Assembly: GCA_951406725.2 (NCBI GenBank)
Contig: OX597815.1
Span: 1,302,001 to 1,366,000 of the forward strand
Source of the DNA: Octopus vulgaris
Lineage: Eukaryota
DNA: 64,000 nucleotides
Direction: 5' to 3'
A program made the position numbers and the translations under genes. Positions 930 through 64,000 of the stretch are shown piece after piece. The notes under the pieces were generated by a model. It did no database searches. It was not told where the DNA came from and saw only the letters and a list, made by a program, of their open reading frames with translations. Each line of letters begins with the position of its first letter. The first letter of the stretch is position 1.

Positions 930-1261
930 ATATCAAATGGAAATTGTAGTCGTAACACCTGTGCCAGTGGCACATAAAAAGCATCATCCAAACGTGGCCG
1001 ATGCCAGTGCCACCTTGACTGGTTTCTGTGCCGATGACACCTAAAAAACATCAACCGATCGTGGCCGCTGCCACCCTCCCCTGGCACGTAAAAAGCACCC
1101 ACTACACTGACGGAGTGGTTGGCGTTAGGAGGGGCATCCAGCTGTAGAAACATTGCCAGATCAGACTAGAGCTTGGTGCAACCTCCTGGCTTCCCAGACC
1201 CCGGTCGAACCGTCCAACCCATGCTAGCATGGAAAATGGACGTTAAACGATGATGATGATG
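930..1261 (+). mobile_element. RTE LINE 3'-tail-derived repeat ending in (GAT)n
   Basis: Same sequence as the 3' end of the RTE copy at ~36600-37018. Other copies at approx. 1325-1530, 1649-1805, 4605-4800, 15369-15590, 19364-19523, 22650-22925, 28064-28400, 34621-34830, 45510-45690. Confidence 0.8.
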
Positions 1262-2850
1262 AAACCCTACTAACAAAATCATAATTCATTGAACACAAGG
1301 TATTTGGTCACCCTGTTGATGCTGGTGCCAGGTGAAATGCACTTGTGATGGTGCCACATAAAAAGTAGCCAATACCCTCTGTAAAGCGGTTGGCACCAGG
1401 AAGAACATCCAGCCATAGAAACCATGCCAAAGCAGACAAATGGAGTCTGGTATGGCTCTCAGCTCTGCCAGCCTCTGTCAACCCGTCCAACCGATGCCAG
1501 CATGGAAAGCAGATGTTGAATGAGGATGATGAGGGTAATGATTGATTCTTAATTTATAGACAGAGAACTATCATTTAATTGTGAGCTCATAAAGTCATTA
1601 CTAGTGATAACTAGATGTTGTTTTGTGGGAAAGCTAAAGTAGCAAGGTCATCATCATCATCGTTTAACGTCCACTTTCCATGCTAACATGGGTTGGACGG
1701 TTTGACTGAGGACTGGGGAACCAGATGGCTGCACCAGGCTCCAATCTTGATCTGGCAGAGTTTCTACAGCTGGATGCCCTTCCTAACGCCAACCACTCCG
1801 AGAGTAGCATTATAAAACTTCTTCCTACTCTGGTCACACACACGCATGTATGACCAGCTTCTTTCAGTTTCCATCTACCAAATTCACTCACAATGCTTTG
1901 GCTGGCCTGAGGTTACAGTAGAAGACACCGGCCCATGGTGTGATACAGTGAGACTGAACCCAAGACCACATGATTGGGAAGTAAGCTTCTTACCTGCGCA
2001 ACTGCTTATATCTGGACTTAACGATGTCCTTTGATCAATTAAAGCCTGTTTGTCCGTCATCGTTTATTTCTGTTATTTCCAAATTCCAGCCAAAATATTT
2101 TTTCTGTCCGGATGACTTTGTTTTAAGTGGAGCTGCCAAAAATTCTTTGTTCTTCAGAACAATGAGTCTTCAGCTTAAAACCAATATTTGTGTCTGTACA
2201 GGTTTTCACTTGATCAATAAAATAAAGGAGACGCCTGGGCAATCAACCCCTGCACTCAATCTCTCCTCCCCCTACTTCCCAATCTCTCCTCCCCCTACTT
2301 CCCAATTCATATTTCTCATCTTCTCTGGAGAGATCATTCTTTTTTATTTTTCCTTTGTTCTAAAACTGTAATTGGGAATCTGGCAAACCCCCATTTCGGG
2401 TTTTCAGTCCATTATTGTTAAAGAATAGATTTTTCACACTGCTGCTGCTGCTGTCCCAATCACTTCTGATTGGATGCAAGACATTATTGAACTGCTTCAG
2501 GTGCAAACTCTGCACTCAGCCAGCTATTTATACCTTACCTTTGTCTAGTTCAGACAACACACTGCATATTTCAGCAGAGACTAATTTGATACAGACTTGT
2601 CTCCCTCTCTTCTACATCCAGCTACGTAGCAAACCTGTTTCTGCTGTGATCATCCTCACCAATTCAGTAGCGCCTCCCTCCCTCCCTCCCTCCCTTCATA
2701 ATCTCTCAATAAACATCTTCCTGTTTTCGGTCAATGGAAACCATCTCAGTTTTGCTGTAGGTTCCTGTCTACGTTGATGGAGCAAAGGGTCTGGAATCTG
2801 CAAGCTCATTTCTGGCCATGGGGAAATACCTCCTTCCTTGGGAATATATA

Positions 2851-3060
2851 TTTCTTTATTGCCCACAAGGGGCTAAACATAGAGGGGACAAACAAGAACA
2901 GACAAAGGGACTAAGTCGATTACATCGACCCCAGTGCGAAACTGGTACTTTATTTATCGACCCCGAAAGGATGAAAGGCAAAGTCAACCTCGGCAGAATT
3001 TGAACTCAGAACGTAACGACAGACGAACGTTCTGAGTTCAAATTCCACCGAAGTCGACTT
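2851..3060 (-). mobile_element. tRNA-derived SINE, family B (partial)
   Basis: Reverse complement of the family B copy at 20395-20615. Confidence 0.7.
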
Positions 3061-3740
3061 TTCCTTGGAAATATAGATACACATCTCATCATCATTTAAC
3101 GTCTATTTTTGCATGGATTGGATGGATTGACAGCATCCAACAAGCCAGAGAGCTGCACCAAGCTCCAATGTCTGTTTTGGCATGGTTTCTAGGACAGGAT
3201 GCCTCTCCTAACATCAACCACCCCACAGAGTGTGCTGGGTGCTGCTATTTTCACAGCCCCCAGCACAAGCAAGGTTGCCAAGTTGCGAGACAAGACCCCA
3301 TCCCCTGTGTGCGTGTGGTGGGGGTGGCTTTATGCCTGGTGACAAGAGTTTAAAGTGTGGTAGAGAGACAGAAACTGGTGAGATCCATGGTTGCCCCCCC
3401 CCATTCTATAATGGCTGGGTAGAAGGAATTGGTAGAAAGACAAAGATGCTGGGGGTGAGGTGTCAGAACATATTTTCAAAGGATGGGTAGAAGAGAAAAT
3501 AGGGACAGAGAATTTGGAAGTGTGGGGGAATAAATTCATTTGGGTGTGAGGGGAGAGTGATGGTTCATTAGGGATGAGGGTTACAGGTGGATTTAGTAAA
3601 CAAGGAAGAACGGTGGCAGTTTAGTTGATGGTAAATGTATGAAGGGGGGTGGTGAAAGAAATAGGGGTGGGGAACAGCAGTAGGGTGATGGGTGGGGGAG
3701 GGGGTGTAGATTTGGAAAGATTGATATGAAGAATCTTAAC

Positions 3741-4110
3741 ATCATCATCATCATCATCATTTAACGTCCGCCTTCCATGCTAGCATGGGTTGGACGATTT
3801 TGAATGAGGGCTGGCGAACCAGATGGCTGCACCAGGCTCCAATCTTGATCTGGCAGAGTTTCTACGGCTGGATGCCCTTCCTGACGCCAACCACTCTTAG
3901 AGTGTAGTGGGTGGTTTTTATGTGCCACCGGCATGGGGGCCAGTCAGGAGGTACTGGCAACGACCTTGCTCGAATCTTTTTACACGTGCCACCAGCACAG
4001 GTGCCAGTGAAGCGACGTTGGTAACGATCACGCTCGAATGGTGCCCTTTTACGTGCCATGGGTACGGAAGGCAGTTGGTTGCTCTGGCAACAATCACGCT
4101 TGGATTGGCA
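3741..4110 (-). mobile_element. RTE 3'-tail-derived repeat
   Basis: (ATC)n followed by the reverse complement of the RTE tail. Confidence 0.8.
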
Positions 4111-5000
4111 CCCTAGAATTATTTTGTACAAGATTTAATGATTTTATTTCAATGAAAGTGGTTTTCTCTGAGAGTTTTATAGTTAAGTGAGGATGATAGG
4201 GTGTGTGTGTGTGGGGGGGGTAGTGACCTTCACTATTAAAGGTCACCCAAGACTGGCGTGATTGATGTGGTTAATGTTGATTGATAACATCTTATCAGTG
4301 AACATTCACAGAAAATACATAAGGGCTTGAGTTCCAGACGAGTGCTGTCTAAGAAAGTACCTCATTAGCCCTTTGGCTTCTGATCAGAAAGCATCTTTGT
4401 TTCTTTCTTCAAGTATGGCCTCTCATCCACGCCACAACACAGCTCTCACTCTTTCTACTTACCTAGATTCTCTTACCCTTTCTCTCTCTAACCGTCTTAC
4501 ACACATGAAGCTAATTACCACACACAACAGACTATAGAACTAAAGACAAATTAGGTTGTAACGATGATGATAATAGATAAATGACTATTTTATATCACGA
4601 TCATGATCATCGTTTAATGCCGCTTTTCATGCTGGCATGGGTTGGACAGTTTGAGTGAAAATTGGTAAGAAGGGAGGCTGATTTGGCAAAGTTTCTACAG
4701 CTGGATGCCCTTCTTAATGCCAACCACTTCGAGAGTGTAGTGGGTGCTTTTTACGTGCTACCAGCATGGGTGCCACTGACCTGACACCAGCATTGGCCAC
4801 AACTTCAGTCTCAGCTTGAGAGGACAACACAAGCACAGTTTATCACCAAGGGTCTCTCGGTCACCTCTCACTGCCTCCGTCCAACAATTAATATTCTGCT
4901 TCACTCGTTTATTCGTTAACCATTACAAATATATTTTAATCTCGAAATTCATTATTTTTATCTAACTTTTTTTGTGTTTTTCCTTTTTCTTTATTTGCAG

Positions 5001-5846
5001 CTAAAATTTCCCCGAAATCCTCATCTCCTCCTCCTTTAGTCCCTCCCTCATCAATAACCAGCCCAGGCACCACCACTAGCACATCTGTCTGTGATATTTC
5101 TCCTGAAAAAGGAATCTGTGTCTATGACAGTCGTGATAATGGTGGTGCCGAAAACAGAAAGTTCAAAGAAGTCATTCTAGAGAAAGATCTTTCTGGTAGT
5201 ATTGGCATAGATCTCACCAAAGAGAGTATGAAGGACAGTGTTGATGCCGGAGAAATCTTTGTGCATTCCATCCAGCCAAAAGGTCCTGCTGATTGCGATG
5301 GACAGTTGCAATGTAACGACCAAATTCTTGCTGTTGATGGAATCCCTGTAAAAGGTCTTAGCTGTAAAGGTGTCCTTAATAGGATACGGCAAAATGAACG
5401 GCCAACTGTGAAATTGTTGCTGTTCCAGAGATCTCAGACATCTCCAGTAAAAGACCACACTTCTCCGACTTCAAGCGTCTCCGATGTTAAATTACCAGCA
5501 AGTTCTTCCTGTCTCAAACTTAGCATAAAACCATCTAGGGCTCTGTCAAGTAGCACCGATGGTTTGGATTCTACGAAACATCTTAAACCCAAATCTTCTG
5601 TGACTAAATCTTACTTTGATCGCTCTTACATTCCGGAACATCACGTCTCAACTCCCAACATCTTTAATTCCATTTACCAAACTGAAGACAAGTCCATCCT
5701 CCCTGATACAAACCATACTACTTCAGCAGAACTTACAGATAAACCACAAGAGGATTCTAAAGACAGGTTTTCTAACGGAATAAAGCAGACCTTCTTTCCC
5801 ACAAGACCTTCCCAAGTCCTTACAAAGAAAATACCTTCAATGAAAG
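5001..5846 (+). CDS. PTPN13: PTPN13-like, first exon found in window; PDZ domain (KEVILEKDLSGSIGIDL...EIFVHSIQPKGPADCDGQLQCNDQILAVDG)
   Basis: ttttctttatttgcag acceptor, open frame from 5003, AAG|gtaaga donor; phase 1-1; PDZ signature. Confidence 0.85.
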
Positions 5847-5879
5847 GTAAGAATATTCTCCAGAATCGAAATTACCAAT

Positions 5880-6282
5880 GTTGTTGTTGTTGCTGCTTTG
5901 TTTCTTTGTTTGTTTGTTTGTTGAGTGAAGCGGTCTTCGTCCCTTTTGTGGGAGAAGTCTGAAACGTGGTCCTTTTGCTATTCATAAAACCCGCAGAAGA
6001 GAAAGCAGGTCAACTCCCGACACCGAGAGCATCAACGGATGGATGAATGTGCATCCAGGCTCAGTGGTTGCGTAGGAAGTCGGGGACAAGAAACAGGAAG
6101 AAAGAGTGAGAGAAAGTTGGGGCGAAAGAGTACAACAGGGGTCGCCACCCCCCCCTGCCAGAGCCTCGTGGAACTTTAGGTGTTTTTGCTCAATAAACAC
6201 ACACAACGCCCGGTCTGGGAATCGAAACCGAGATCCTCCGACCACGAGTCCACTGCCCTTACCACTGGGTCATTGCGCCTCC
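5880..6282 (-). mobile_element. tRNA-derived SINE, family C
   Basis: Minus strand head GGAGGCGCAATGACCCAGTGGTAAGG...GGTTTCGATTCCC (box A/B), (AAC)n tail. Confidence 0.75.
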
Positions 6283-10399: not shown

Positions 10400-10862
10400 A
10401 CTGTCTCAACTCTAACTGACCAATGAGGGCACATAGTCTCAGCCCATGCATTCTCTAAATGATACCGTCACCTGTCAGTCAGCGAAGCTGATTCAGTGTC
10501 AGCTTGTCTCACCTAGTGATGTTATTTCCCGCCGACGTGTTATGACTTTCAAGCCATTTTCGGTCTTCCCGCTTCAGCCATATATAGAAGCTGGCTTTTT
10601 CGACCGCCTCCTGTACTCTCCCTATTAGTTTTCGCAGCTCGGGGCTAGAAAAAACAAATCTTCTTTTGAAAAGCATTGACATTTTCCTTTCAATGAAGCC
10701 TCTAGCCCCCACTGCCAGGTGGTCACACTCGACATTCCATCCCTGTTCTCTGCATTCTTCGATTAGTTTTTCATACCTCTTCTCCTTTCGTTTCTCTGCA
10801 TTGTCGATGTTCTCTTCCCATGGCACTGCTAGTAGGAGAGAATCCTCTGCTACCATCACCAT
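10400..10862 (-). mobile_element. 3' end of an RLE-type non-LTR retrotransposon (R2/HERO-like)
   Basis: LAVPWEENIDNAEKRKEKRYEKL..EC...GW......AVGARGF matches the restriction-like endonuclease C-terminus. Confidence 0.75.
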
Positions 10863-11182
10863 CTCCTACCAGTGGAATAAACACAAGTGATTATACGCAC
10901 CACAAATCCATTTGAGAGGTTCTCTCTTGGTAAACAATACAGTATTGTGTGTTCTAACACAACATCCGCTTTTCAGTTGGGATGAATGTTATCTTTTGGT
11001 TTAAATATTGCTTCTGTCACTATTAATTATTTCTACATATTAATTAATTATTTCTATTAATTATTAATTATTTCTACATAAAATCTGTTTCCTTTGCAGC
11101 AGTGTTTTGTTAATCTTCCTTGAAAGCTTCTTCCTCTTATCTGAATTCTCAAACGGTTTATACCATTGATCTCTTTCAATAG

Positions 11183-11276
11183 GGTGGAATTGATACAAAA
11201 ACAGATTTAGGTGGTGTCTATGTGAAATCATTGCAACCAGGTGGAGCTGCTCAACAAAATGGCACTATCCAAAAAA
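11183..11276 (+). CDS. PTPN13: PTPN13-like exon, 2nd PDZ (GGIDTKTDLGGVYVKSLQPGGAAQQNGTIQK)
   Basis: ctttcaatag acceptor, A|gtaagt donor; phase 0-1; resembles PTPN13 PDZ2 GGVNTSVRHGGIYVKAVIPQGAA. Confidence 0.9.
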
Positions 11277-11410
11277 GTAAGTCTCTAAATGCCATTTTCT
11301 ACCATTTTTCCTACTTAATTTGATGTTGATTTTTATAAACTTTTGTTAATTAAAAAAAATCAATCAATTATTACTTATTTACAATAATATATTGAGAGAT
11401 AAGGAATTAT

Positions 11411-11782
11411 ATACATTATTTCCATTTGATGGCTATTTGTCCTCATCTTGTTTGTTGTTAACACAACATTTCGGCTGATATACCCTCCAGCCTTCATCAG
11501 GTGTCTTGGGGAAATTTCGAACCTGGGTTCTCATTGCTAAGGTAGTTTTCAATGTTGTTTGTTGTTGTTATTATTATTATTATTATTATCACCATCATTC
11601 TGAGTTCGATTCCAGGCAGTGACCTGAATAATAATAATATCAAAAAATACCTTAGGAATGAGAACCCAGGTTCAAAATTTCCCCAAAACACCTGTTGAAG
11701 GCTGGAGGGGGATATCAGTCGAAACATTGTGTTAACAACAAACAAGATGAGGACAAATATCTGCCAAATGTAAATGATGTAT
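11411..11782. mobile_element. Fold-back element with a minimal type I hammerhead motif in each arm
   Basis: Inverted arms ~11411-11565 and ~11630-11782; minus arm reads GACAC-CTGATGA-AGGCTG..CAGCC-GAAATGTT-GTGTT; box B-like GAGTTCGATTCC in centre. Confidence 0.75.
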
Positions 11783-12718
11783 TACTGATTTAGTTTTACA
11801 GTTAATAAGATTCTACAGTAGTTTAGTTAACTAACTATAGACTTGCCCTATTACCCAGTTTAGTCCCTCAGTTCCATTTCATGGAATCTCTTGCCATTAT
11901 GTGGACCATGAGGTCTACTGACAATTAGGTCTGCTCTTCTTCCTCCTCTCCTTCTCTTCCACCATCAAAAAACAATGAGGGCTGATGCCCTTCTGCCCCT
12001 GACTCCTGACTTTTATTTTAGAAATAAAAGTGAACCTCTCACCGTCTTTGATATTAACATTGTCACTTCTTGTTTAGGAGGATCACTATGCCAATAATAA
12101 TAATAACACATGCACTGGTTCAAATCACTTCTTTAACCAATTCACTTCTTGTTTAGTCTTACAGTTAATGTAAATTACTTAGCAACTTAAGGCTTGTGCA
12201 CTGATGGTTACTGCATTGGTTTCATGACCTCAATGTCATGAGTTCAATTCCTGAACTGTGCAGTGCCTTGTATCCTTGAGCAACGCACATCATTTCATGC
12301 TTTGCTCTAATTTATTCAACTGCAAATAAGTACTAACCGCAGTTGCAGTCCCTTTATGTCTGCCCACAACTAAATAAACATGTCTGGAAAATTTGCTGTA
12401 AACATTTTTGGACATGGGAAAATTTTCTGCAGGGAAATTCACCATAAGATGAAAAAGTGTCATATTTGGAACTCTGCTTGTGTTCCAAACATTAAAATTC
12501 TCTCAACATAATCTTCACCACTATTGTGTAATAAAAACTTCTCATTGATTTCAAGAAATTTACATTTTTTCATGAATTATATACCTACTTCTTCTGCTTG
12601 GTTCTTCTTTTGCCTCCAGCCCCTAATATTGTGAGATGAATGTGCTAAATGAAAACTTTCCTAAGGGAAAAATGTTTATGGTAAAATTTCACATTACCCT
12701 AAATAAGCCCCTAAAATA

Positions 12719-14918: not shown

Positions 14919-15113
14919 AAGTAATGTTCGTAGCCACTCCCACATGGCTGTCCATTCGAATGGACTTTACTGCAATTTTTTAACCCCAAGAGGACATCCC
15001 CTCTAGCTGTGCATCATTAACCAGCGAGCGGAAATGTCCTCTTGGGAGTTAAAAAATTGCAGTAAAGTCCATTCGGATGGACAGCCATGTGGGAGTGGCT
15101 CTGGACATTACTT
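14919..15113. repeat. Fold-back (MITE-like) palindrome
   Basis: ~80-bp near-perfect inverted arms around a ~35-bp spacer. Confidence 0.85.
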
Positions 15114-23871: not shown

Positions 23872-24021
23872 ATATGCTTTATTTTAAGCAGCAGAAAATT
23901 CAACAAAACCTGTTACTCTGAGTTTCCCATTGCCGTTCATCGGACAGTTTTTGCAATGGCAACAGGAAACTCAGAGTAACAGGTTTTGTTGAAATTTTCT
24001 GCTGCTTTAAATAAAGTATAT
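23872..24021. mobile_element. Fold-back element with hammerhead motif (minus strand 23910-23947)
   Basis: ~65-bp inverted arms; CTGT-CCGATGA-ACGGCAATGG-GAAAC-TCAGA-GTA-ACAG. Confidence 0.65.
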
Positions 24022-24033
24022 ATATATATATAT

Positions 24034-24248
24034 AAATCCTAATTGAGGGAATGGAGCAGGTAAAATTCAGGCTACATATGTTTCCTAGCTTGCAGATCCC
24101 TCAAAATTAATAATTATTCATTGAGGGTACTTTGGCTTGATGAGCTGTTAGTGGTGTACCCCTCGTTGAGTAATTATTACTTCTGAGGATCTGTTAGCTA
24201 GGGAACATGTGTAGCCTGGATTTTACCTGCTTCCTTCAATTTGGATTT
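24034..24248. mobile_element. Imperfect fold-back element with degenerate hammerhead
   Basis: Inverted arms GCAGGTAAAATTCAGGCTACATATG / CATGTGTAGCCTGGATTTTACCTGC; GGC-TTGATGA...GGAAC-ATGT-GTA-GCC. Confidence 0.55.
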
Positions 24249-24940
24249 TTATTCACATTCATAGCAATCCTAGTTGCTCACCGTCAACTATAAAAAGACT
24301 ATTATTCAGCTTATCAAACTTTGAGATGGGGAAGGCCTACAACCTTTAACACCAATAAACTATTATTATTCCAGAAAGCTGGTTTTTATGCTGACCACGG
24401 ACTGCTCAAAACTTCCTAATGTCCTACACCTGAATCCTTGGATCATCACCATCTAACGTCCATTTTCCTTGCCAGAATAGATTGGATGGTTTCACTGAAA
24501 ACTGCTGCACCAGTTTCCAGTCTAATTTGGCCTGGTTTTTATGGCTGGATGCCATTCCTAATGCCAACCACTCCAAGAGTGTAATAGATGCCTTTTATGT
24601 GCCACCAACATGGGTGCCAGTTATGAAACACCAGCATTGGCTACCGCTACGATATCACTTGGCTTGATGGGTCTTATTCTCAAGCACAGCATATTACCAA
24701 AGGTCTCGGCCACTGGTCATTGCCTTCATGAGGCCCAAAGTTCAAAGGGTGCATTTTATGTGAAAACATTGCCAAACTCCTTCCCAAAACCCAATCTTCT
24801 TCTTCTTCTTCAGAACCAACAAATGCTTTCTTTCTTGTTTAGTTGTTAGCATATGTGTAGGTGTGGATGTATCAGTAACATCATCCCCCAAGATACAGCT
24901 GGTACTAGGATGGCAATGTTAAACTTTGCACTTATATATA

Positions 24941-34909: not shown

Positions 34910-37018
34910 AATGGAAGAAAGAGAGACTGCCGAATGTCGACCCAACAGAGGGACCAGCTATCCGAATTGACAGTACCTTGGTAGATAAAGCAATTAAGAC
35001 AGGGGAAGCCCCCGGCCTATCAGGAATCACCGCAGAGATGCTCAAAATATCTGGCGGTGTTGGCTATAACCTAGTCACCCGTATAGTTTATCAGGTGATA
35101 CATGAAGGAGTCATACCAATGACTGGTGTGGTAGCACCATAATCAACAGCTACAAAGGTAAAGGTAACACTTTAGATATAAATAATTACAGAAGTATCAA
35201 GCTGTTGGTTCAGGTAATGAAGGTCACAGAGAGGGTCATAGCCCAACTAATTAGGAAGAGAGTCTAGATGAGATGCAGTTTCGGTTCGTACCAGGGAAAA
35301 GCACCACTGATGCCATATTTCTGGTAAGACACCTGCAGGAGAAATACCTAGCCAAAGATAAATCTCTGAACCTGGCTTTCGTTGACATGGAGAAAGCCTT
35401 TGACAGGGACCCCCGATCCCTTATCTGGTGGTCAATAAGGAAACTAGGGATAGATGAATGGTTAGTGAGAGCTGTGCAAGCCATGTACAGGGACACTGTC
35501 AGTAAGGTGAGGGTTAGCAGCAAGTACAGTGAAGAATTCCAGGTAGAGGTAGGGATCCACCAAGGTTCAGTCCTCAGCCCCCTCCTATTTATCATAGTCC
35601 TCAAGGCAATAACAGAGGAATTCAAGATAGGATGCCCGTGGGAGCTCCTCTACGCTGATGAACTTGTTCTAATTGCTGAGTCACTATCAGAACTGGAAGA
35701 GAGGTTTCAGGTGTGGAAGCAAGGATTAGAATCGAAGGGCCTTAGAGTCAACCTAGCTAAAACCAAAGTCCTAATAAGTAGGAAGGTAGACAAACCACAA
35801 ATCCCTTCAGGTAGATGGCCCTGCTCAATCTGTAGAAAAGGCGTAGGTAGAAACTCTATAAGATGTACCCAGTGTAAGCTATGGACACATAAGAGGTGCA
35901 GCAATGTCAAAGGAAGGCTAACTAGGAAAATAGTTTTTGTATGTGGCAGATGCTCAGGAGCAATAAACACTGAAAATGTGCAGAGACCAACTTCTGCCAC
36001 TTTCCAGGGAGAAAAACTAGAAATAGTTGATAGCTTCCGTTACCTAGGTGACCAAGTCAGTAGCGGGGGTGGGTGTGCTGAAAGTGTAACTGCTAGAGTA
36101 AGAATAGCCTGGGCAAAGTTCAGAGAGCTCTTACCTCTGCTGGTGACAAAAGGCCTCTCGCTCAGAGTAAAAGGCAGACTGTATGACGCAGGTGTATGAA
36201 CAGCCATGCTACATGGCAGTGAAACATGGGCCGTGACTGCTGAGGACATGCATAAGCTTGCAAAGAATGTGTAATGCCAGTATGCATACATGACAGAGTG
36301 TAAGTGCCCTTAGAAATAAGTTGGATTTAAGAAGCATCAGATGTGGTGTGCAAGAGAGACGACTGTGCTGGTATGGTCATGTGATGCATATGGATGAGGA
36401 GAGCTGTGTGAAAAAGTGTCACACCCTAGCGGTTGAGAGAACTTGTGGAAGAGGTAGATCCAGGAAGACCTGGGATGAGGTGGTGAAGCACAATCTTTGA
36501 ACATTGGGCCTCATCAAGGCAATGACTAGTGACCGAGACATTTGGAGATATGCTGTGCTTGAGAAGACCCGGCAAGCCAAGTGAGACCATAACCTGTGGC
36601 CAAAGCCAGTGGTATATAACCAGCCCATTCAACCTGTTGAAGCAAGTGAAATCAAAATTGCTGATGTGGCCGATGACAGTACCACCTGATTGGCACTCGT
36701 GCCAGTGGAACATTAAAAGTGCCATTGACTTGCTCCCATGCCAGTGCCACGGGACTGGCTCCTCATGCATATGGCACGTAAAAAACACCTTTTGAAGGTG
36801 ATCGTTGCCAGTACTGCTTGACTGGGCCTTGTGCTGGTGGCAAGTAAAAGCACCCACTACACTCTTGGAGTGGTTGGCGTTAGGAAGGGCATCCAGCTGT
36901 AGAGACTCTGCCAGGTTAGACAGGAGTCTGGTGCAGCCATCTGGTTAACCAGTCTTCAGTCAAACCATCCAACCCATGCCAGCATAGAAAACGGACGTTA
37001 AACGACAATGATGATGAT
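34910..37018 (+). mobile_element. 5'-truncated, decayed RTE LINE (RT with internal Cys/His finger, (GAT)n tail)
   Basis: KTG.APG.SGITAEMLK, AFVDMEKAFDR, GIHQGSVLSPLLF, LLYADE, FRYLG, GRSRKTW; frameshifts and stops. Confidence 0.92.
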
Positions 37019-37059
37019 ATATATATATATGCGTGCGTGTGTGTATCTATGTGTATATA

Positions 37060-37905
37060 TCATCATCATCATCATTTAGCGTCCCCTTTCCATGCTAGCA
37101 TGGGTTGGATGGTTCAACTGGGGTCTGGGAAGCCAGAAGGCTGCACCAGGCTCCAGTCTGATCTGGCAGTGTTTCTACAGCTGGATGCCCTTCCCAACGC
37201 CAACCACTCTGTGAGTGTAGTGGGTGCTTTTTATGTGCCACCGACACAGGTGCCAGACGAGGCTGGCGAACGGCCACGATTGGATGGTGTTTGTTACGTG
37301 CCCACAGCACGAAGGCCAGTCGATGCGTTACTGGTTACAGCCATGTTCGGATGGCTTTCTTATGTGCCACAAAAATGCAAATTCCATTGATGTTCATCGA
37401 TTTTGATTTGATTTGATTTTCACTTGCCTCAACAGGTTTTGACAAGTAGAGTTATGTGTCCCAAGAAGGAAGGTATGCACAGGTGGACTGACTACGTCCC
37501 AGGTAGGGACCATGGGTTATGGCCTCACGTGTCCTGCCGGGTCTTCTCGCGCACAGCATACTTCGAAATGTCTCGGTCTCTGGTCATTTCCTCGGTGAGA
37601 CCTAAAGCGCGAAGGTCGTTCTTCACCACCTCGTCCCAGGTTTTCCTGGGTCTACTTTTTCCACAGGTTCCCTCAACCGCTAGGGTGTGGCACTTTTTCA
37701 CACAACTATCTTCATCCATTCTTACTACGTGTCCATACCAGCGTAGACGCCTCTCTTGCACACCATATCTGATGCTTCTTAGGTCCAACTTTTCTCTCAA
37801 GGCACTTACACTCTGTCGGGTATGAACACTGACATTACACATCCAACGGAGCATACTGGCTTCATTTCTTGCGAGCTTACGCATATCCTCAGCAGTCACG
37901 GCCCA
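37060..37905 (-). mobile_element. RTE LINE 3' end, same family, inverted relative to 34910-37018
   Basis: WAVTAEDMRKLARNEASMLRWMC...RLRWYGHV...RPRKTW followed by the tail. Confidence 0.9.
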
Positions 37906-38433: not shown

Positions 38434-38628
38434 TTAAAAAAAAAAAAATTTTAAATATCCTTTACACCCCTCCTGCACAAATTTATCCAAGTTTTGACAC
38501 TTTAGAGACATCAAATCTTATGAGTCTTGGTAGTCAGATTCGTAAGATCTGATGTCTCTAAAGTGTCAAAATTTGGATAAATTTGTGCAGGAGGGGTGTA
38601 AAGGATATTTAAAATTTTTTTTTTTTAA
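38434..38628. repeat. Near-perfect palindrome (MITE-like)
   Basis: ~94-bp inverted arms with a short loop. Confidence 0.85.
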
Positions 38629-40332: not shown

Positions 40333-40483
40333 ATATATAATACAAATAAGAAAATGGAGAAACAAATTTAGTTTGTTCATCAACTTACGGATATTATAAT
40401 GTTAGATTATTCATTTTACAAATGGGAACATATCTATATATAGCAAATAAGTAACAAGGATGTCCATTTCAAGTGGTTCCATT

Positions 40484-40836
40484 TAATCACTCAATGAAAA
40501 CGTCAATTTGAAAGAAACCCCTCTCCTCAGAAGCAGATGACCCATATAGATTTCCAACAAAAAGGATAAACCGTTATTTTTTAGCAAAATTTCATCAGTA
40601 CAAGAGACTAAAATAATTACATTGATTCATTTTGCTATTTTTCGGCCCCTAAATTCATTCTGCCACAAAAATAGTAAAATTGAAACAATGTAATTATTTT
40701 AGACTTTTGTACTGATGAAATTTTGCTTAAAAAAAAAAAATGGTTTATCCTTTATTTTGGAAATCTATATGGGTCATCTGCTTCTGAGGAGAGGGGTTTC
40801 TTTCAAATTGATGGAATGTTTTCATTCATTGATTAA
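40484..40836. repeat. Long fold-back MITE-like palindrome
   Basis: ~160-bp inverted arms (GAAAGAAACCCCTCTCCTCAGAAGCAGATGACCC / GGGTCATCTGCTTCTGAGGAGAGGGGTTTCTTTC). Confidence 0.85.
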
Positions 40837-53612: not shown

Positions 53613-53848
53613 TATATATATATATAAATTTGTTTGGTGAAATAGAAAGATGAATAATCTTGTTGCAGATTAATCAAAAGTTTAACCGATACCTTGGTAG
53701 CAAAAATCACAGCAGAAGAAAGCACGGTTGGAGGTACAACCATATGGTGTTGCAACCGTGCGTTGGTGCGGATAATTGAATTTTAATATTATTAGTGAAT
53801 TGAAGAAATGGAGTTGAACGAAGATTGAACAGAAATCCTTTTATTGCA

Positions 53849-53928
53849 TTCTACACGTGTTTCGAAAGCCACAATTTACCAAATTCCGATTGAATAAGGA
53901 GACCATATTGTGTCTTTCTCTTCAGGAA
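53849..53928 (-). ncRNA. Type I hammerhead ribozyme in 3' pLTR (sense to RT ORF)
   Basis: TTC-CTGAAGA-GAAAGACACAAT..ATTGTGGCTTTC-GAAAC-ACGT-GTA-GAA, followed by AATAAA. Confidence 0.8.
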
Positions 53929-54234
53929 GAAATAGGAATTCCGTTGGCAGAACAAAAACAGAACAGAGGCGCAGCAAAACAAATCGAACGAGGAGGCTCC
54001 TAAGAGCCCATGGCCAAACTGTTTATCAATGTATGTTGAAATCGGGTGGTGGGTGCGTTGAAGATATTTACAGGTCAGGCAGCGGTCAATCCGGTGGGTG
54101 AGAGCACAGGGTGCGTAGATGTTCTTTGTGACCGAGACTAAGGTTCTGACTATTTTAAGAATATTAGGTGTATTATATGGGGCGAGACAAAATCTACTTA
54201 GAAACATGTGTGTGTGAACTGTTCTATATGTGCA

Positions 54235-54431
54235 CGGCCGTAAGTTGGTAAAAAGCGCTACACAATGGTCACTGCTGAAAAATCCGTCAGGCGGCAGAAA
54301 ATATTTTATGTGTTCGTGTGTTCGTTTAATCGCGCGGCCGTAAGTTGGTAAAAAGCGCTACACAATGGTCACTGCTGAAAAATCCGTCAGGCGGCAGAAA
54401 ATATTTTATGTGTTCGTGTGTTCGTCTAATC
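54235..54431. repeat. 100-bp tandem duplication in Penelope 3'UTR
   Basis: CGGCCGTAAGTTGGTAAAAAGCGCTAC... at 54235 and 54335, near-identical. Confidence 0.9.
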
Positions 54432-54606
54432 ATGCTTTGTCAAAAAAAACCTCACGTCGTCAAAACAAAACACCATTCGCCTAATGGGAGTAATTCCCCT
54501 TGCAAGGGTTAATCATATCTCTCTTAAAAAGCTTTTTCAAAAAATTATTTCCAAGGGCTATTTTCATATAAGTAGGGTAACCGGGTGCAGGTATCATTTA
54601 TAAGCG

Positions 54607-56841
54607 TCATTTATAAGCAAGATAAGTATAACGCCGCCAATGGGGGCATCGAAAAGCCGACTGTAAAAGTCCGTTTACCATCCGGTCTCTGGCGAACAAT
54701 ATATGGAAAAGCTCAGAGACACAAAGGTTGCACTTCCTTCTGCCTCTATCAAATGGGAGGGCCACCGACAAAATTGACCATTCCAGCCTGTAGCTTGAGT
54801 TCGTATTCTTCAATCGCCTTATTAGCTTGCTAAGTCCCGTGGCTTGGTATTTATTCACGTCGCGAAAAGTTGCGTAATGGTTGGAGATTCGTAAGGCCAA
54901 TTTTGACGATGAGGCCCCGACATATGAGTAGACATCTGAGTCCGTGTAAACCTTGCATTGGTAAACGGCATTTCTGATCTTGGAGTTCCCCAACATGAAC
55001 CTTATTCTATTAGGATTAGTTTCTGAAATTAGAACTGCGTTACTGTTACTATATTGATTGCGAGAACTGCGGCCGCTTACTACTTTATTTTCCACTAAGT
55101 CACTATTAACTAACGGAATAACCCCTGATTCTTCACTATCACTCAGAGTGCTGTAATTGCTAGTGTCCGTGGTACTGCTATTGCCGGAAACGATGCTGGA
55201 GTTGCTATTGGGATTCTCTACCCTAATGAGCCGAGTTGCGCTCACCTCACTACTGCCATTGTTATCGTTAATGACATCACCCTTATTTATATCTATACGC
55301 CTAGTATATAATCCCTGGTTGGAGCTGAGATTATCAGTCACTGTACTGGCTCTCATATCATTATTCCTACTATTATTATTCCTACTGAGCGTTAAACCAG
55401 GAGCGGACGAAGCTGTGCCTCCGGACAAAGGTGATAGGGTCTTAATAAGCAGCCTATTATTATGGGAGGCGATTATCTGGGCGAGGTTTTTAGTGTTGGA
55501 GAAAGCTATCCTAACTTTATGCGAGTTAACCGTGGAGTAATATTTGGAGTTTCTGGGGAAGTTATTGGCGATGGCTTGTCGAAACAGGAGGGGGAGGTTA
55601 GTTCTAATCTGCTTACCAAAGGGAATTACAAACCATATATGCTTATTCCTATTTATGTGATGGGTTGGGAAGCCAGCTCTCGCATTAGGGTGGGTGATTC
55701 TCGGATGAATAACGGGTTTTGGGTTAGTGTGAACTCCCCCGGACCGATAATTATCCTTGTTCGCTAAATTAAATGCGGAAGTGCCTGCCCCAGCACCCGC
55801 CGCGCTCCCGTCACTACTTAAATTATTTATGCTATTATAGACGGCCCTATCCTGATGACCGAATGATGGCATCGGAAGGGCCGGATCAATATAAATTACC
55901 TTCTGCCTATAACCGGCCTTGGATAGTGCGGCGTTATAAAATTCCGCTTTCTGCATAAAAATATCGGCACTAGCGGACAAGTTAGACAATCTTAGAGAGA
56001 TGTTTTTAACCAAATTGTCTGTTACGGTTTTGGCATGATTGGAGAAGACACTGACATACTTCAAATTAGTGGAAGGCTTATGGTAAGGGCAGTATGAATC
56101 GCTATTAAGGTTAAGTGTAACGTCTAGGAAATTAGCCTTGGTGAGTTCATTATCAAAAACTATATTCATGCCCATTCTATTAAAAAACCTAGCTAACCTA
56201 CTCTTAGTTTTCTGCACTATTCTGTTCATGGTGTTTTGCAGGTAAAACAGACAATCGTCACGATACAGGCCGCCCGCGATCTCCGGGAATTGGTCGGACA
56301 ATTCGTAGAGAATATAGATTCCGACCAAATCGGCTATCTGCGCACTATCCGAACTACCCATAGGCACATCAAATTCATTGGGAGTATCTTTACGGATCCA
56401 CAACTTATTATCAAACTTAATAAACGATTTCCTGGCAACTAAAATGATATCTATTTCTTCTCTGGTGAGGCCTGCTTTATTGTGAGCATGCCAAAGGGCC
56501 TTATTTAGTACACTAGGGTTAATCGAGGGGTAGAAGCTAGCGATATCAAACTGAATAAACCTAGTACGGTTCTTATTGGGGATGGAAGAGAACCACTTCA
56601 CTACCTGCGAGGAGTTGGCCCAGAGGCTGAGCTTCAGCTTATTTACTAAACTAGGGATATATTTATCTAAAATGTACTTACTGATTGCCCCGATATCAGA
56701 GCTAGCAGGGCATATGAGTCTTAACGCTGGGTTGGTGTAGAAATTCGGTTTATGGTCCTTCACTATAAATCTAGGTTGCTTAGGGCTAAGCGGCTGCGTT
56801 CTCATTTGAATTCCGTGTTTAAACATTATTTCCTTAATTTC
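54607..56841 (-). CDS. Penelope-like RT/GIY-YIG endonuclease ORF (N-terminally truncated)
   Basis: KDHKPNF, FIQFDIASFYPSI, PMGSSDSAQIADLVG, GLYRDD, FLDVTL, AVYQCKV...YVGAS, CNLCVSE, CPH; no internal stops. Confidence 0.9.
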   Translation of the reverse strand, partial: EIKEIMFKHGIQMRTQPLSPKQPRFIVKDHKPNFYTNPALRLICPASSDIGAISKYILDKYIPSLVNKLKLSLWANSSQVVKWFSSIPNKNRTRFIQFDIASFYPSINPSVLNKALWHAHNKAGLTREEIDIILVARKSFIKFDNKLWIRKDTPNEFDVPMGSSDSAQIADLVGIYILYELSDQFPEIAGGLYRDDCLFYLQNTMNRIVQKTKSRLARFFNRMGMNIVFDNELTKANFLDVTLNLNSDSYCPYHKPSTNLKYVSVFSNHAKTVTDNLVKNISLRLSNLSASADIFMQKAEFYNAALSKAGYRQKVIYIDPALPMPSFGHQDRAVYNSINNLSSDGSAAGAGAGTSAFNLANKDNYRSGGVHTNPKPVIHPRITHPNARAGFPTHHINRNKHIWFVIPFGKQIRTNLPLLFRQAIANNFPRNSKYYSTVNSHKVRIAFSNTKNLAQIIASHNNRLLIKTLSPLSGGTASSAPGLTLSRNNNSRNNDMRASTVTDNLSSNQGLYTRRIDINKGDVINDNNGSSEVSATRLIRVENPNSNSSIVSGNSSTTDTSNYSTLSDSEESGVIPLVNSDLVENKVVSGRSSRNQYSNSNAVLISETNPNRIRFMLGNSKIRNAVYQCKVYTDSDVYSYVGASSSKLALRISNHYATFRDVNKYQATGLSKLIRRLKNTNSSYRLEWSILSVALPFDRGRRKCNLCVSELFHILFARDRMVNGLLQSAFRCPHWRRYTYLAYK

Positions 56842-57134
56842 CAGTTCACACACACATGTTTCTAAGTAGATTTTGTCTCGCCCCATATAATACACCTAAT
56901 ATTCTTAAAATAGTCAGAACCTTAGTCTCGGTCACAAAGAACATCTACGCACCCCGTGCTCTCACCCACCGGATTGACCGCTGCCTGACCTGTAAATATC
57001 TTCAACGCACCCACCACCCGATTTCAACATACATTGATAAACAGTTTGGTCATGGGCTCTTAGGAGCCTCCTCGTTCGATTTGTTTTGCTGCGCCTCTGT
57101 TCTGTTTTTGTTCTGCCAACGAAATTCCTATTTC

Positions 57135-57214
57135 TTCCTGAAGAGAAAGACACAATATGGTCTCCTTATTCAATCGGAATTTGGTAAATTGTGGCTTTCG
57201 AAACACGTGTAGAA
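57135..57214 (+). ncRNA. Hammerhead ribozyme in inverted 5' pLTR copy
   Basis: Mirror of 53849-53928; CTGAAGA 57138-57144, GAAAC 57200-57204, cleavage triplet GTA 57209-57211. Confidence 0.8.
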
Positions 57215-57271
57215 TGCAATAAAAGGATTTCTGTTCAATCTTCGTTCAACTCCATTTCTTCAATTCACTAA

Positions 57272-57310
<39 letters not shown>

Positions 57311-57499
57311 TCATATAGTAATGCTTTCAAATACATTTGCAACATCAACAGATGGCATTCATGTATGACACTTCTCTGGGTAGGCACATAAAAGGGTACC
57401 ATTCGAGTGGGATCGTTACCAGTGTCGCCTTACTGGCACCTGTGCCGGTGGCATGTGTAAAAATATTTGAGTGAGGTCATTGCCAGTACCGCCTGACTG

Positions 57500-59157
57500 G
57501 CACGTAAAAAATTGTTAGAAAATATGTCCTTATATTTATTGTTGTCTTTAATAAATGTCTTAATTATATTTAAAATCTCTTTAATAATGTTAGTTTTAAC
57601 CTTTATCCCATAGGGGATTATTAGCCATATTTCCTTCTTATTATTATGAGGTTTATTGTTCAAGTTACTACCTGCATCAGGCTTCAGATGATTCTTAATG
57701 TTGTGGTTATTGTTATCGAAGGTGTATGCATCATTTAAATTATAATTATATCTCACCTTATGAAGCCCTTCATTATAATATGGTGCATGTTTATTGAATA
57801 TCTCATAGTTGGAAGAAAGTAATGAAATTCTTTTCCGTATATCATTTGCTAACGCTTTCTTAATTGAAGGTGGATGGTTACTCTTAGCATTAATATATTT
57901 CAGGCTTTTGTTAATTTTATGCTAAGGTTGGGTTATACCTGTTATTAAGTTAAAATTTACATCTAAGTAATTAACATTGCTATTTTTGTTATAAATTGTA
58001 ATCCTAAGCCCATTTCTTTAAAAAAAAACTATATATTTTCTTCTTATATATTTCCAATGTTCTATTCGTGCAATTTTTCGTTATTAGCAGCAGGTCATCT
58101 CTATATAATCCAAACTCCATTTTAAAATTTTCTAACTGGAGTTCTGCGAATAAGTAAATCCCTACTAGGTCTGTAACCTGAGCAGAATCAGGTGCTCCCA
58201 TAGGGATATCAAAAAAATCCCCGGTGTCTTTTCTAGCCCACAATTTATTATTATACTCGATAAACGATTTTCTGGCCATTTTTACTACTTTAACTTCATC
58301 CTTGGTCATTCCCACCTTATTCATTGCATATATTAGGACCTTATTAAGTACAATTTCATTAATCGATGAATAATAATCATCTATGTCTATTTGAATGAAT
58401 TTGTAACTATTACAGTCTTTAATATTTTTAAACCATTTTAAAGTATTATTAGTGCTAGTCCAGAGTTTAAGGTAATTCAGATTATTTAGTTTATTAATAT
58501 ATTTATCTAAAATTAATTAATTTCCCTAAATCTGATTTACTGGGGCATATGAGTCTAACTTTAGGGTCCGAGTAAAAATTGTGTTTATGTTCCTTCAAAA
58601 TAATTCTAGGGTGCATTGGTACATAAGGTTTTGTTTTATTGTCATCTCGTGTTTTTCCATGATTAACCTAGAGGCTTTATTAATATTATAAATGGTATTT
58701 TCCGGGACAATTTTATATTTTTTATTTATTTCCTTTTCCAAAAGATTATCATATAATTTCGTATCTAACTTATACAGGTTGCCAGTTTTATCTGATTGTA
58801 CTACGATTCCTTCAATATTCCGCAATTCTTTTATTTTGGTTGCTAAATATCTTAAATATTCGTTGTGCCTGTTTGGGTATTTTTAAAATTTAATCTTTTT
58901 AACCCCCTTCCAAATTTTGTCTCCCAGAGTCTGAATCCCCCTATTATATGGAGGTTTGAGCTTATGGAATTGGTATTCTCCACATTTTTAATGTTGGCAA
59001 TGTTACCATTATTATAGTGGACTATCCCTTTTATTCTATTAATGAAATCTTTTATATTATTAATAAGTTTAAGGATTTATTTCCTTTTCGACGGAAAGGG
59101 GATGTCCCTCAATGATGAGTCCCAGAGTTGTGGCTCTATCTTACCTGCAAGTTCCAT
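57500..59157 (-). pseudogene. Second, decayed Penelope-like element (N-terminus + RT)
   Basis: SLRDIPFPSK, SDKTGNLY, FFDIPMGAPDSAQVTDLVGIY, GLYRDD; stops and frameshifts. Confidence 0.88.
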
Positions 59158-61206: not shown

Positions 61207-64000
61207 ATGTCTGCAAAACCTTTTTCTGCGAATATTCCACCTCCTGAGCGAATGTCTTTATCAGGAAATGTGGCCAGCAATTGGAGAAGATTTAAACGAA
61301 ACTTTTTGAATTATTCAATTACCAGTTGACTCTCGAATGAAGTTGATACTGGATATGAAACTTCTTTATTTCTAGCGAGAAATGGAGAAGAATGTTTTGA
61401 TGTATATGAAGGACTACAAATTGACAATAAAGAACAGAGAAATGACCCAGCTGAAGGGATTAAGAAATTCAAGGACATTTTCAGGCTCATGAGTCTCATC
61501 AATTCCAAGAGAAAAACAAGAGAATTCCGAGAACATAGAAACCTACACAGCTGTCTGGTGCCAACTTGCAAAAAACTGAAACTTTGGAGGATTAAAGGAC
61601 AGACTTATTAGGGATGAAGTTGTTGTTGGTGCTAAAGACAATGTTTTGGCAGACAAAAAGTTAACCCATGACAAATGTCTACAGATAGGGAGAACAGAGG
61701 AGACATGAAAACAACAAACAAAAGCCATCTCCTCAACTGTCAATGCAACAGATCCACAATTAACCCTTTCTTTACAGGACCAAATAATGAAAAAGGGTAT
61801 CAACATAAAAGGAAGATGCCTGAGAGGAAGTACATGCGGTGTGGAATGTTCCCATTTTACAATAGAAATGACTGCCCCCACCTCAGGAACAAGATGCAGA
61901 TGGTGTTTCAAAATAGGACACTACGCAACTGTTTGCAAGAATTTTCCAAGAGTTAGAACATCATTTCTTATGTTTCTTTGGAAAATACAAATGCAGTTCG
62001 TGAAGACAACAAGAATAGAATGGCAATCAAAAATAGAGGTTACCACCAAAGTATGCAGCATAATTGTGGAATTTAGAGTGGACACTGGTGCAGATGTGAC
62101 AGCAGTACCTGACCGGTTCTTCAGGAAGAATTCTCCAATAATAAAACCTACAAACAAAAGATTATATGGACCAGGTCAACACAAAATAAAAGTACTTGGA
62201 CGTGTAGATGCCACATTGAATTACGGGAAAGCAACATCGCAACAGGAACTGTACATTGCGCAACACTTAGCTGAACCATTATTGGGTGGACCAGCAATCA
62301 AAGCTCTCAATCTATTGAGTAAAATCAATATGATAAAAAGTGAAGGTCTCCAATACAAAAAAAGACTTCCCCAATGTGTTTACAGGTCGAAGGAAATTGA
62401 GGTATATACCGTAAATCCTCGAGTATAATCCGCATTTTTTCCCCCAAATTTAAAGGTCAAAATCCCTAGTGCGTATTATATACGAGGTTAAAAATGAAAA
62501 TTATTTTCTAAGCAATGTCCGAGTCTCTATTTGCTATGTCTATGCCTACATCGATGGTCTGTTGTTTGCCAGTTCTAGTGCTGATGAGCATGCACAACAT
62601 TTAAAGCTGCTTTTCCAACGCCTGACCCAATTCAGAGTTACAACAAATCCAGCTAAATGTGTTTTTGGATCCTCTTCACTTGTTTTCCTTGGCCACCTCA
62701 TCGATGAAGTGGGTATTAGGCCTCTTCCTGAAAAAGTCCATGCTATCCAAGAACTCCCTCCTCCCACCTCGCTCCGGCAGCTTCATCGTTTCCCGGGATT
62801 ATTGAACTTTTATAGACGATTTATCCCTCGCTGTTCGAAACACCTTGCTCCTCTTACTGAGCTTTTAAAAGATCGCAAGAACAAAAACGAAGCTATTTCA
62901 CTCTCACCTTCCCAAATGGATGCTTTTCGAACGGTAAAGCGTGAACTTGCTCAAGCCTCGCTGTTAGCGCACCCTGTTTATGGTGCAAAGCTTTCGCTTG
63001 TGGTAGACGCATCAGATACACCGGTAGGCGCCGTGTTGCAACAGTTCCATCAAGAACATATGCAAACTTTGGCATTTTTCTCTCGGCAGCTGCTGAGAAT
63101 TTAGCAGAGACGACCAAACCATTCCGGGATCTACTAAAAAGACCACTTGGATATTGGACCAGCCTCAAGAAACGCTTCGGACTCTGAAGGAAAAGCTGAG
63201 CTCTGCACCAGTATGGGATGCATCGTCTTATGGCTTGGGTGGGGTACTTCTTCAGAAGGAAGGAGATGGCCGGGGACCTGTATTCTATGCATTGAAATCT
63301 CTCATTGAGACAGAGCAGAGATATGCACAGATTGAGAAGGAAGTATCAGCAGTCACAGGGTGTTGTGAGAAGTTTGCTTTACTTCTTGATAGAACTACCA
63401 AAGTTCTTGGTAGAAACAAATCACAAGCCTCTACTACTTCTGCTAAAGACTAAACGTCTCAATGGGTTGATTCCAAGAATCCAGCGTCTCCGCATGCACC
63501 TAAAGAGATTCACCTACGAGATCACACACATCGCAGGGAAAAACCTCGTTACAGCAGACACCCTATCCAGAGCTCTTGGCAGCGTACCAATGAAACAAGA
63601 ATTCCAGCAGGAGACAGAGATGTTTGTCTGTTCTTTCATAGAGACCATCTTTGTGAGTGACAAATGACTGGAGGAAATCAAGCAGAAACTAAGACCTGAC
63701 AAAATCTGTGGTCAAGTGGTCAACTTCTACAAGATGGACCACTGGCCTGAAGCAGCCACACAAGATCTGGAACCGAGACCCTTCTGGTTTGTATGGCAGT
63801 ATCTAACAGTTTATCAGGGATTCTTACTGTATCAGAGTTGACTCATCATCCCTGCAGACATCTTGGATCGTCTACATGAAGGACACCAAGGTGAGGGACA
63901 GTATTTGGTGGCCAGGCCTTTCCAGGCAAATTGCTGAGAAGACAGGAAGGTGTAGTAGAATACGAGAGAAGGAAAAGAAATATCCACCAGAACCACTACA
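61207..64000 (+). mobile_element. Decayed Ty3/Gypsy (Mag-like) gag-pol, runs off window
   Basis: Gag NW..FK..F..Y, zinc knuckle CRWCFKIGHYATVC, protease VDTGAD, RNase H DASSYGLGGVL/YAQIEKE/TNHKPL, integrase start HEGHQG; many disruptions. Confidence 0.88.

Follow-up and report, generated by a model that had tools for sequence, protein, structure and literature searches.

How did two hammerhead motifs come to lie on opposite strands, a few hundred bases apart, in one intron of an octopus gene, and what kind of element left them there? The locus belongs to a stretch of Octopus vulgaris DNA of 64,000 nucleotides (contig OX597815.1), hereafter the window, along whose plus strand the PTPN13-like protein P0124 aligns collinearly. 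The PDZ exon of this host gene is 100% identical to the Octopus vulgaris protein and 94% identical to O. bimaculoides proteins. The inverted pair at 11406-11781 sits in one intron of the gene, beginning about 130 nt inside it, downstream of exon 11183-11276, and is the only locus of its family within the 64-kb window. Our best explanation, to which we give a probability of about 60%, is that the locus is a head-to-head pair of 5'-truncated, decayed copies, likely produced in one insertion by the RT/EN of a Penelope-like element (PLE) acting on a likely non-coding, tRNA-headed RNA. The locus itself is an ordinary decayed relic of a known PLE-type inversion, and likely an inactive one. Table 1 gives the positions of its features and of a second element used for comparison.

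Table 1. Features of the inverted locus, its host gene and the comparison element (positions in the window)
Feature	Position	Strand	Basis or remark
PDZ-coding exon of the host PTPN13-like gene, upstream of the element	11183-11276	+	protein match
Minus arm: 5'-truncated repeat copy with its break in the (AAT)n/(AAC)n linker and its 3' end on the left	11406-11590	-	5' limit (~11590) approximate
Minimal type I hammerhead motif: stem I 5 bp, intact CUGAUGA, extra A, G10.1-C11.1, stem II 6 bp, GAAA, triplet GUU	11460-11505	-	descriptor and fold
(AAT)n/(AAC)n microsatellite linker, minus arm	11553-11589	-	sequence
Head-to-head junction of the two 5'-truncated copies, approximate	11590-11597	.	skipped as repeat in contig mapping
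Plus arm: 5'-truncated copy, the longer of the two, containing box B segment, AAT linker, body, hammerhead and an AC-rich 3' tail of 53 nt	11598-11781	+	sequence, family contigs
Box B-like motif GAGTTCGATTCC	11602-11613	+	pattern GAGTTCRANNCC
(AAT)n linker, plus arm; longer in other family copies	11627-11638	+	loose contig ends at 11627 and 11639
Decayed hammerhead motif: core CUGUUGA (A6 lost), CA replacing CG	11687-11733	+	sequence and family letters
Young Hydra-like PLE (comparison element) with a 5'-truncated 762-aa RT + GIY-YIG-like frame (54607-56895)	53627-57279	-	homologues and motifs

The two arms form the fold-back that the first-pass annotation had placed at 11411-11782. Positions 11411-11485 are 87% complementary to 11708-11782, and 11483-11559 are 88% complementary to 11633-11709, with 14 mismatches and one gap over the 136 aligned columns. 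The minus arm reaches just beyond that range, its 3' end lying at 11406, where many contigs of the family also stop. Both 3' ends point outward, and the 5' ends, cut at different points, abut within about 8 nt. Such an arrangement has precedents, since PLE insertions are stated to have a 5'-truncated copy next to them in inverted orientation (Craig et al. 2021, PMC8557442), and dual minimal hammerheads lying 100-700 bp apart on opposite strands have been read as probable truncated PLEs (Cervera and de la Pena 2014, PMC4209133). A one-sided tail of 30-40 bp, an optional feature of PLEs in the descriptions available, was not found at the locus, where the minus arm is longer by about 6 nt only, and no target-site duplication is visible in the flanks.

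The proposed readings of the two hammerhead arms stand: GACAC CUGAUGA A GGCUG..CAGCC GAAAUGUU GUGUU on the minus arm (11460-11505) and AACAC CUGUUGA A GGCUG..CAGUC GAAACAUU GUGUU on the plus arm (11687-11733). A strict descriptor of the minimal hammerhead matched once in the window, on the minus arm, and never in 300 dinucleotide shuffles. Folded alone, the minus-arm motif forms stems I and II (z -2.27; 4 of 200 shuffles equally stable), and the plus-arm motif is weaker (z -1.09; 32 of 200). In the suggested search with hammerhead models, the descriptor recovered the minus arm, but Rfam returned no hammerhead family at the locus. All that Rfam gave were miRNA models matching hairpins non-specifically, with scores under the gathering level, and these matches were dismissed.

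The minimal hammerheads of PLEs are recognised by an extra base after A9, a G10.1-C11.1 pair, a stem I of 4-5 bp, a long stem II and a palindromic 15.2/16.2 (PMC4209133). At our locus, the boxes CUGANGA and GAAA are present in type I topology, intact in the minus arm, together with the extra A, G10.1-C11.1, a stem I of 5 bp and a stem II of 6 bp (longer than 4). The 15.2-16.2 palindrome is CG in the majority of the family and is retained by neither arm; the minus arm has UG where the family has CG, and its predicted cut falls between 11465 and 11464. These hallmarks and the family letters support the earlier assignment of the motifs to the PLE-type minimal hammerhead with an ancestral CG palindrome at 15.2/16.2. 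The plus-arm hammerhead, judged by its letters, is predicted to be inactive.

The view of the pair as twin ribozymes forming one working unit is not supported, because the motifs lie on opposite strands and both carry changes in the core or in stem III. Their opposite orientation makes dimer pairing of both within one RNA impossible, and a shared-RNA dimer of the two arms was therefore rejected. Whichever strand is transcribed, the RNA contains one motif in sense and the other in antisense, and the sense copy on the strand of the host gene is the plus arm, the one with the broken core. The arm-to-arm fold is predicted at -211.5 kcal/mol, with a pairing probability of 0.9999 at the tested pair against less than 1e-23 for the hammerhead stems. 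In the host pre-mRNA, these models predict that the arms would pair mutually and not fold as a ribozyme. No compensatory changes were seen between the two arms, the stem differences being one-sided in the two copies compared.

Public sequencing data place the locus in a very abundant family. The stretch, or parts of it, is present in 20 runs from 12 studies, and we mapped four of the 24 runs listed, namely the contig sets X14, X5 and X15 and the raw-read run X22. The contigs mapped numbered 26,268 in X14, 23,333 in X5 and 4,267 in X15, nearly all on the arms, and the summed depth in X14 rose from 40 in the unique flank to about 7e6 over the hammerhead. From X22, one read among 12.9 million mapped to window positions 11150-11950, perhaps because of filtering or of the sample label. 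Run X15 is RNA by guess only and was excluded as evidence of expression. The notion of a non-coding, high-copy family is supported. Depth ratios, which the mapping tool cautions are no copy number, give a rough floor of 1,000-6,000 family copies and a ceiling of 3e4-2e5, and we bound the number loosely at thousands to about 1e5. Exact-pattern scans found no locus in metagenome contigs, viral contigs or prokaryote genomes, as expected for an animal repeat.

The majority letters of the family restore what the two local copies have lost. At 11468 (C15.2), the restoring letter accounts for 76, 69 and 83% of the depth in X14, X5 and X15, respectively, and at 11695 the letter restoring CUGAUGA reaches 97, 94 and 100%. 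At 11726 (G16.2), the restoring letter stands at 46, 43 and 62% among plus-arm contigs and is kept on the much deeper minus arm. Among the difference rows listed, majority letters also restore GACAC (81, 87 and 99%) and CAGCC (91, 87 and 100%). The ancestral GAAACGUU, which the first-pass annotation had guessed from the two variants, is thus recovered by the majority letters pooled over both arms, and so is CUGAUGA. Since the majority letters of the family are intact, both local copies must have decayed, losing the CpG differently in each.

The head-to-head layout is not peculiar to this locus. Seven joints among the 15 listed of 104 join minus to plus arm, as do 8 of the 12 rows listed (of 42) in a table of further junctions, and at least 12 distinct head-to-head breakpoints, each with one short side, occur elsewhere in family contigs, all differing from that of the locus. 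The shorter side of the seven joints measures 21-28 letters, under the caution level of 30, and two of the seven recur across runs; they are convincing as a set, not singly. Six of the listed joints labelled as opposite-strand were set aside, four being arm-to-arm swaps and two small offsets, and two more are deletions inside the plus arm. The variation of breakpoints among family junctions argues against fixed terminal repeats.

If PLE machinery made the joint, what was the RNA? The box B-like motif that had been pointed out upstream of the plus-arm hammerhead is real and beyond chance, its pattern occurring three times in the window against 0.20 expected, a number that none of 100 shuffles reaches. 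It also lies in a high-copy segment, whose depth in X14 (about 0.5-0.9e6) is similar to that at the 3' edge of the family (about 0.6e6). No box A was found in the 100 bases upstream of 11602, which are themselves antisense of the other arm; ARAGORN called no tRNA at the locus, and the plus-arm copy has no T-arm fold. Lacking box A, tRNA call and T-arm fold, this copy probably does not serve as a Pol III template. Within the plus arm no T4 terminator occurs, the first being at 11794, beyond its 3' end.

In other copies of the family, a linkage between head and body is suggested by the contigs. The loose ends on either side of the linker run into longer AAT tracts in X14 (161 and 260 contigs), and in X5 the loose ends behind 11639 have a consensus similar to the beginning of the body. 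In X15, 25 contigs with a loose end behind 11639 carry the AAT tract into sequence that differs from the body, a hint that another 3' part may also be joined to the box B head. None of the contigs listed spans head and body, and the 5' end of the family was not recovered, searches with a spurious antisense translation having found nothing. Octopus assemblies may contain longer family members with a fuller tRNA-like head. The same intron carries another SINE-like insert at 12170-12400, with a box B match at 12240-12251. The other SINE of the window has 12 bases around box B in common with the element, and the bases downstream differ. Overall, we consider it likely, if unproven, that the family is a PLE-mobilised, tRNA-headed SINE.

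A second element of the window, the Hydra-like PLE at 53627-57279, establishes that PLE machinery does produce the inverted layout in the octopus genome. The inverted ends previously noted there are present at 53784-54221 and 56842-57279, 438 bp long and 99.3% alike, with the predicted cut 68 nt from the 3' end against 53 nt in the arms, and this layout, common to both elements, supports the PLE link that had been drawn for the fold-back. Both ends carry a hammerhead of their own (cores at 53925 minus and 57138 plus; stem II region of 55 nt), the flanks are TA-rich, and a one-sided extension of about 157 bp occupies 53627-53783. A 100-bp tandem duplication lies at 54232-54431. Pfam gave no family for the 762-aa frame, which was classified by homologues and motifs; it is 33% identical to an Argonauta protein over 575 columns, with a second match in the nuclease region. 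The element shows the C-terminal EN with CxxC and CxH, the hammerhead and the (TA)n target of the Hydra clade. The CxCX5C linker is absent from the frame, which has an Asn/Ser-rich stretch instead, and the DKT/RWK region is truncated; CxCX5C, DKT, and RWR or RWK are present in the two best homologues. Taken together, the sequence motifs point to the Hydra clade. An older PLE fragment of like kind at 57430-58800 (minus) is 74% similar to the element over 148 bp, is frameshifted and is ended by a SINE.

This PLE has no DNA similarity to the arms at 11406-11781. Its terminal repeat and hammerhead being unrelated in sequence, 53627-57279 does not show us the partner of the family, and no RT/GIY-YIG frame is attached to the family's terminal repeat at 11406-11781. 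Other repeats populate the window. A 118-aa frame at 10509-10865 (minus) is presumably, by eye, akin to the restriction-like endonuclease end of a non-LTR retrotransposon, and broken remnants at 61709-63667 resemble by eye a Gypsy-type LTR retrotransposon, with what look like parts of its protease, reverse transcriptase and RNase H. Further fold-backs occur at 36753-37321, 40483-40836, 38437-38626, 14919-15113, 23872-24021, 24030-24252 and 1385-1797; some of the window's fold-backs are inverted pairs of a common SINE and others are MITE-like, and many long hairpins lie within the introns of one gene.

These observations can be arranged into a plausible history, for which the anole PLE protein PAc provides the model. 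PAc acts in vitro on AT-rich DNA, both strands of which it cuts and extends; its reverse transcription starts in an AC-rich stem-loop downstream of the hammerhead, and its ribozyme cleaves only with the protein and is dispensable for insertion (PMC11167929). In the octopus, full-length master copies would be transcribed, probably by Pol III from the tRNA-derived head. By analogy with PAc (PMC11167929), a PLE protein would bind the hammerhead and the AC-rich 3' tail, nick both AT-rich strands and prime cDNA from each nick. The two cDNAs would then stop early at different points and join at their 5' ends, leaving the 3' ends outward, as they are at the locus. The hammerhead may serve mainly as part of the tail recognised by the protein, cutting only as a dimer or with protein. 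Genomic copies retain 53 AC-rich nt past the predicted cut, which fits an uncut RNA as template. Both copies later decayed, each losing its CpG and the plus arm also changing in the core, and their arms would now pair with each other in the host pre-mRNA instead of folding as ribozymes.

Contigs from two further organisms show the insertion to be old. One, of organism C, bridges the flank and 36 nt of the minus arm, and one of organism E contains 29 nt of the plus-arm end with flank, short of the 31-nt rule. The 14 mismatches over 136 columns between the arms, at a rate of 0.0036 per million years (PMC13282606), would correspond by our own estimate to an age of roughly 14 million years, a value inflated by CpG decay.

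Could the same locus have arisen otherwise? The arms might be truncated pseudo-LTR ends of an autonomous PLE family, with box B lying in its untranslated region or stemming from a local scrap of a SINE, and without any Pol III role. This is rather unlikely in our judgement, although it matches the published reading of opposite-strand minimal hammerhead pairs, and an ATG-started frame of 33 codons spans the minus-arm hammerhead, as with the start of the PAc ORF. Yet the 33-aa product has no exact protein match and no Atlas hit above 0.81, none of them credible. The depth over the box B segment equals that at the family's 3' edge, the bases that follow box B differ from those of the window's other SINE, and a microsatellite linker separates head from body. 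The retrozyme label of the first-pass annotation is not supported. Tandem repeats in head-to-tail order are the defining trait of non-LTR retrozymes (PMC7229834; bioRxiv 10.64898/2026.07.22.740005), but the locus is inverted and lacks them. The arms could still be dispersed monomers from a non-LTR retrozyme or Sm-alpha-like family, the active copies of which stand in head-to-tail arrays and yield circular RNA, given that Sm-alpha elements have a Pol III promoter ahead of a hammerhead and that retrozyme families have dispersed monomers and are proposed PLE derivatives. We find this improbable, as there is neither a tandem repeat at the locus nor a head-to-tail joint among the 15 listed of 104, and the hammerhead is of the minimal PLE type, not of the canonical retrozyme type.

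The pairing of the copies might also owe nothing to a single event. Two independent insertions or a later inversion could have brought them head to head, or a role in the host intron could have preserved the hairpin. The family is abundant, and the insertion is old, contigs of organisms C and E reaching the arms. Against such origins, which we hold to be very improbable, stand the closely abutting 5' ends, at least 12 similar junctions elsewhere, and arms that are about 10% diverged, with pairing not visibly preserved. Long terminal inverted arms flanking a short spacer would also suit a MITE or fold-back DNA transposon, in whose terminal inverted repeats a hammerhead-like sequence had appeared by chance. 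This seems barely credible to us: the breakpoints of the family junctions vary, the arms are unequal in length, the flanks show no target-site duplication, and the motif exceeds chance matches.

The partners of SINEs are normally LINEs. We would give about even odds to the broader proposition that a true SINE with a PLE partner figures among the most abundant octopus repeats, combining a tRNA-derived Pol III head, an (AAT)n linker and a PLE hammerhead tail, with thousands to about 1e5 copies, PLE-type inversions and the seeding of long intronic double-stranded hairpins. How non-coding hammerhead elements use PLE proteins is an open question in the literature available. If the proposition is true, the in vitro PLE assay of PMC11167929 would gain a natural minimal substrate, namely a Pol III transcript of 200-300 nt ending in a PLE tail, and could serve to ask whether the hammerhead acts as a cutting device or as a recognition signal. 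Part of the large unclassified SINE/PLE fraction of the octopus genome (SINE 11.6%, PLE 6.83% in the figures available) would also be reclassified. Finally, intronic inverted pairs would be candidate double-stranded substrates for cephalopod RNA editing.

The layout of the locus is already known, having been published for PLEs, whereas a PLE-mobilised, tRNA-headed SINE is not described in the literature searched. This search, from which subscription journals were mostly absent, found no octopus hammerhead repeat and no PLE-mobilised tRNA SINE. The available text of the 2026 O. vulgaris repeat annotation and of PMC8967140 does not mention ribozymes, and the O. vulgaris repeat library (Zenodo) may contain the family already, under another name.

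Octopus tRNA-derived SINEs were reportedly described by Ohshima and Okada in 1994, and bear the names OK, OR1 and OR2. They have tRNA-derived heads, as proposed for our family, but no hammerhead is mentioned in the accessible parts of the octopus repeat literature. Non-autonomous Chlamys PLEs, such as MRC1, are non-coding and form PLE-type insertions as in the octopus family; they are found in green algae, mostly without canonical hammerheads, and the available description reports no tRNA head for them (PMC8557442). The non-LTR retrozymes of metazoans are likewise short, non-coding and likely PLE-dependent, with a type I hammerhead (PMC7229834; bioRxiv 10.64898/2026.07.22.740005), but their head-to-tail repeats yield circular RNA, and no such repeats exist at our locus. 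Further literature was drawn into the comparison (PMC7761336, PMC10886601). The SINE-like Sm-alpha and Sj-alpha of schistosomes also consist of a short non-coding repeat in which a Pol III-type motif precedes a type I hammerhead (PMC6765202). According to the same source, they are often in tandem and their hammerhead cleaves in vitro, whereas the octopus locus has a minimal, putative hammerhead in an inverted pair and no box A. As for EN+ PLEs as described in the texts available (PMC4209133, PMC8557442), our locus differs from them in having no RT/EN frame linked to the tail and no one-sided tail of 30-40 bp, and in having, further upstream, an (AAT)n linker preceded by the segment with box B; it resembles them in the anatomy of the motifs, in their placement on opposite strands a few hundred bases apart, in the outward 3' ends and in the AT-rich site.
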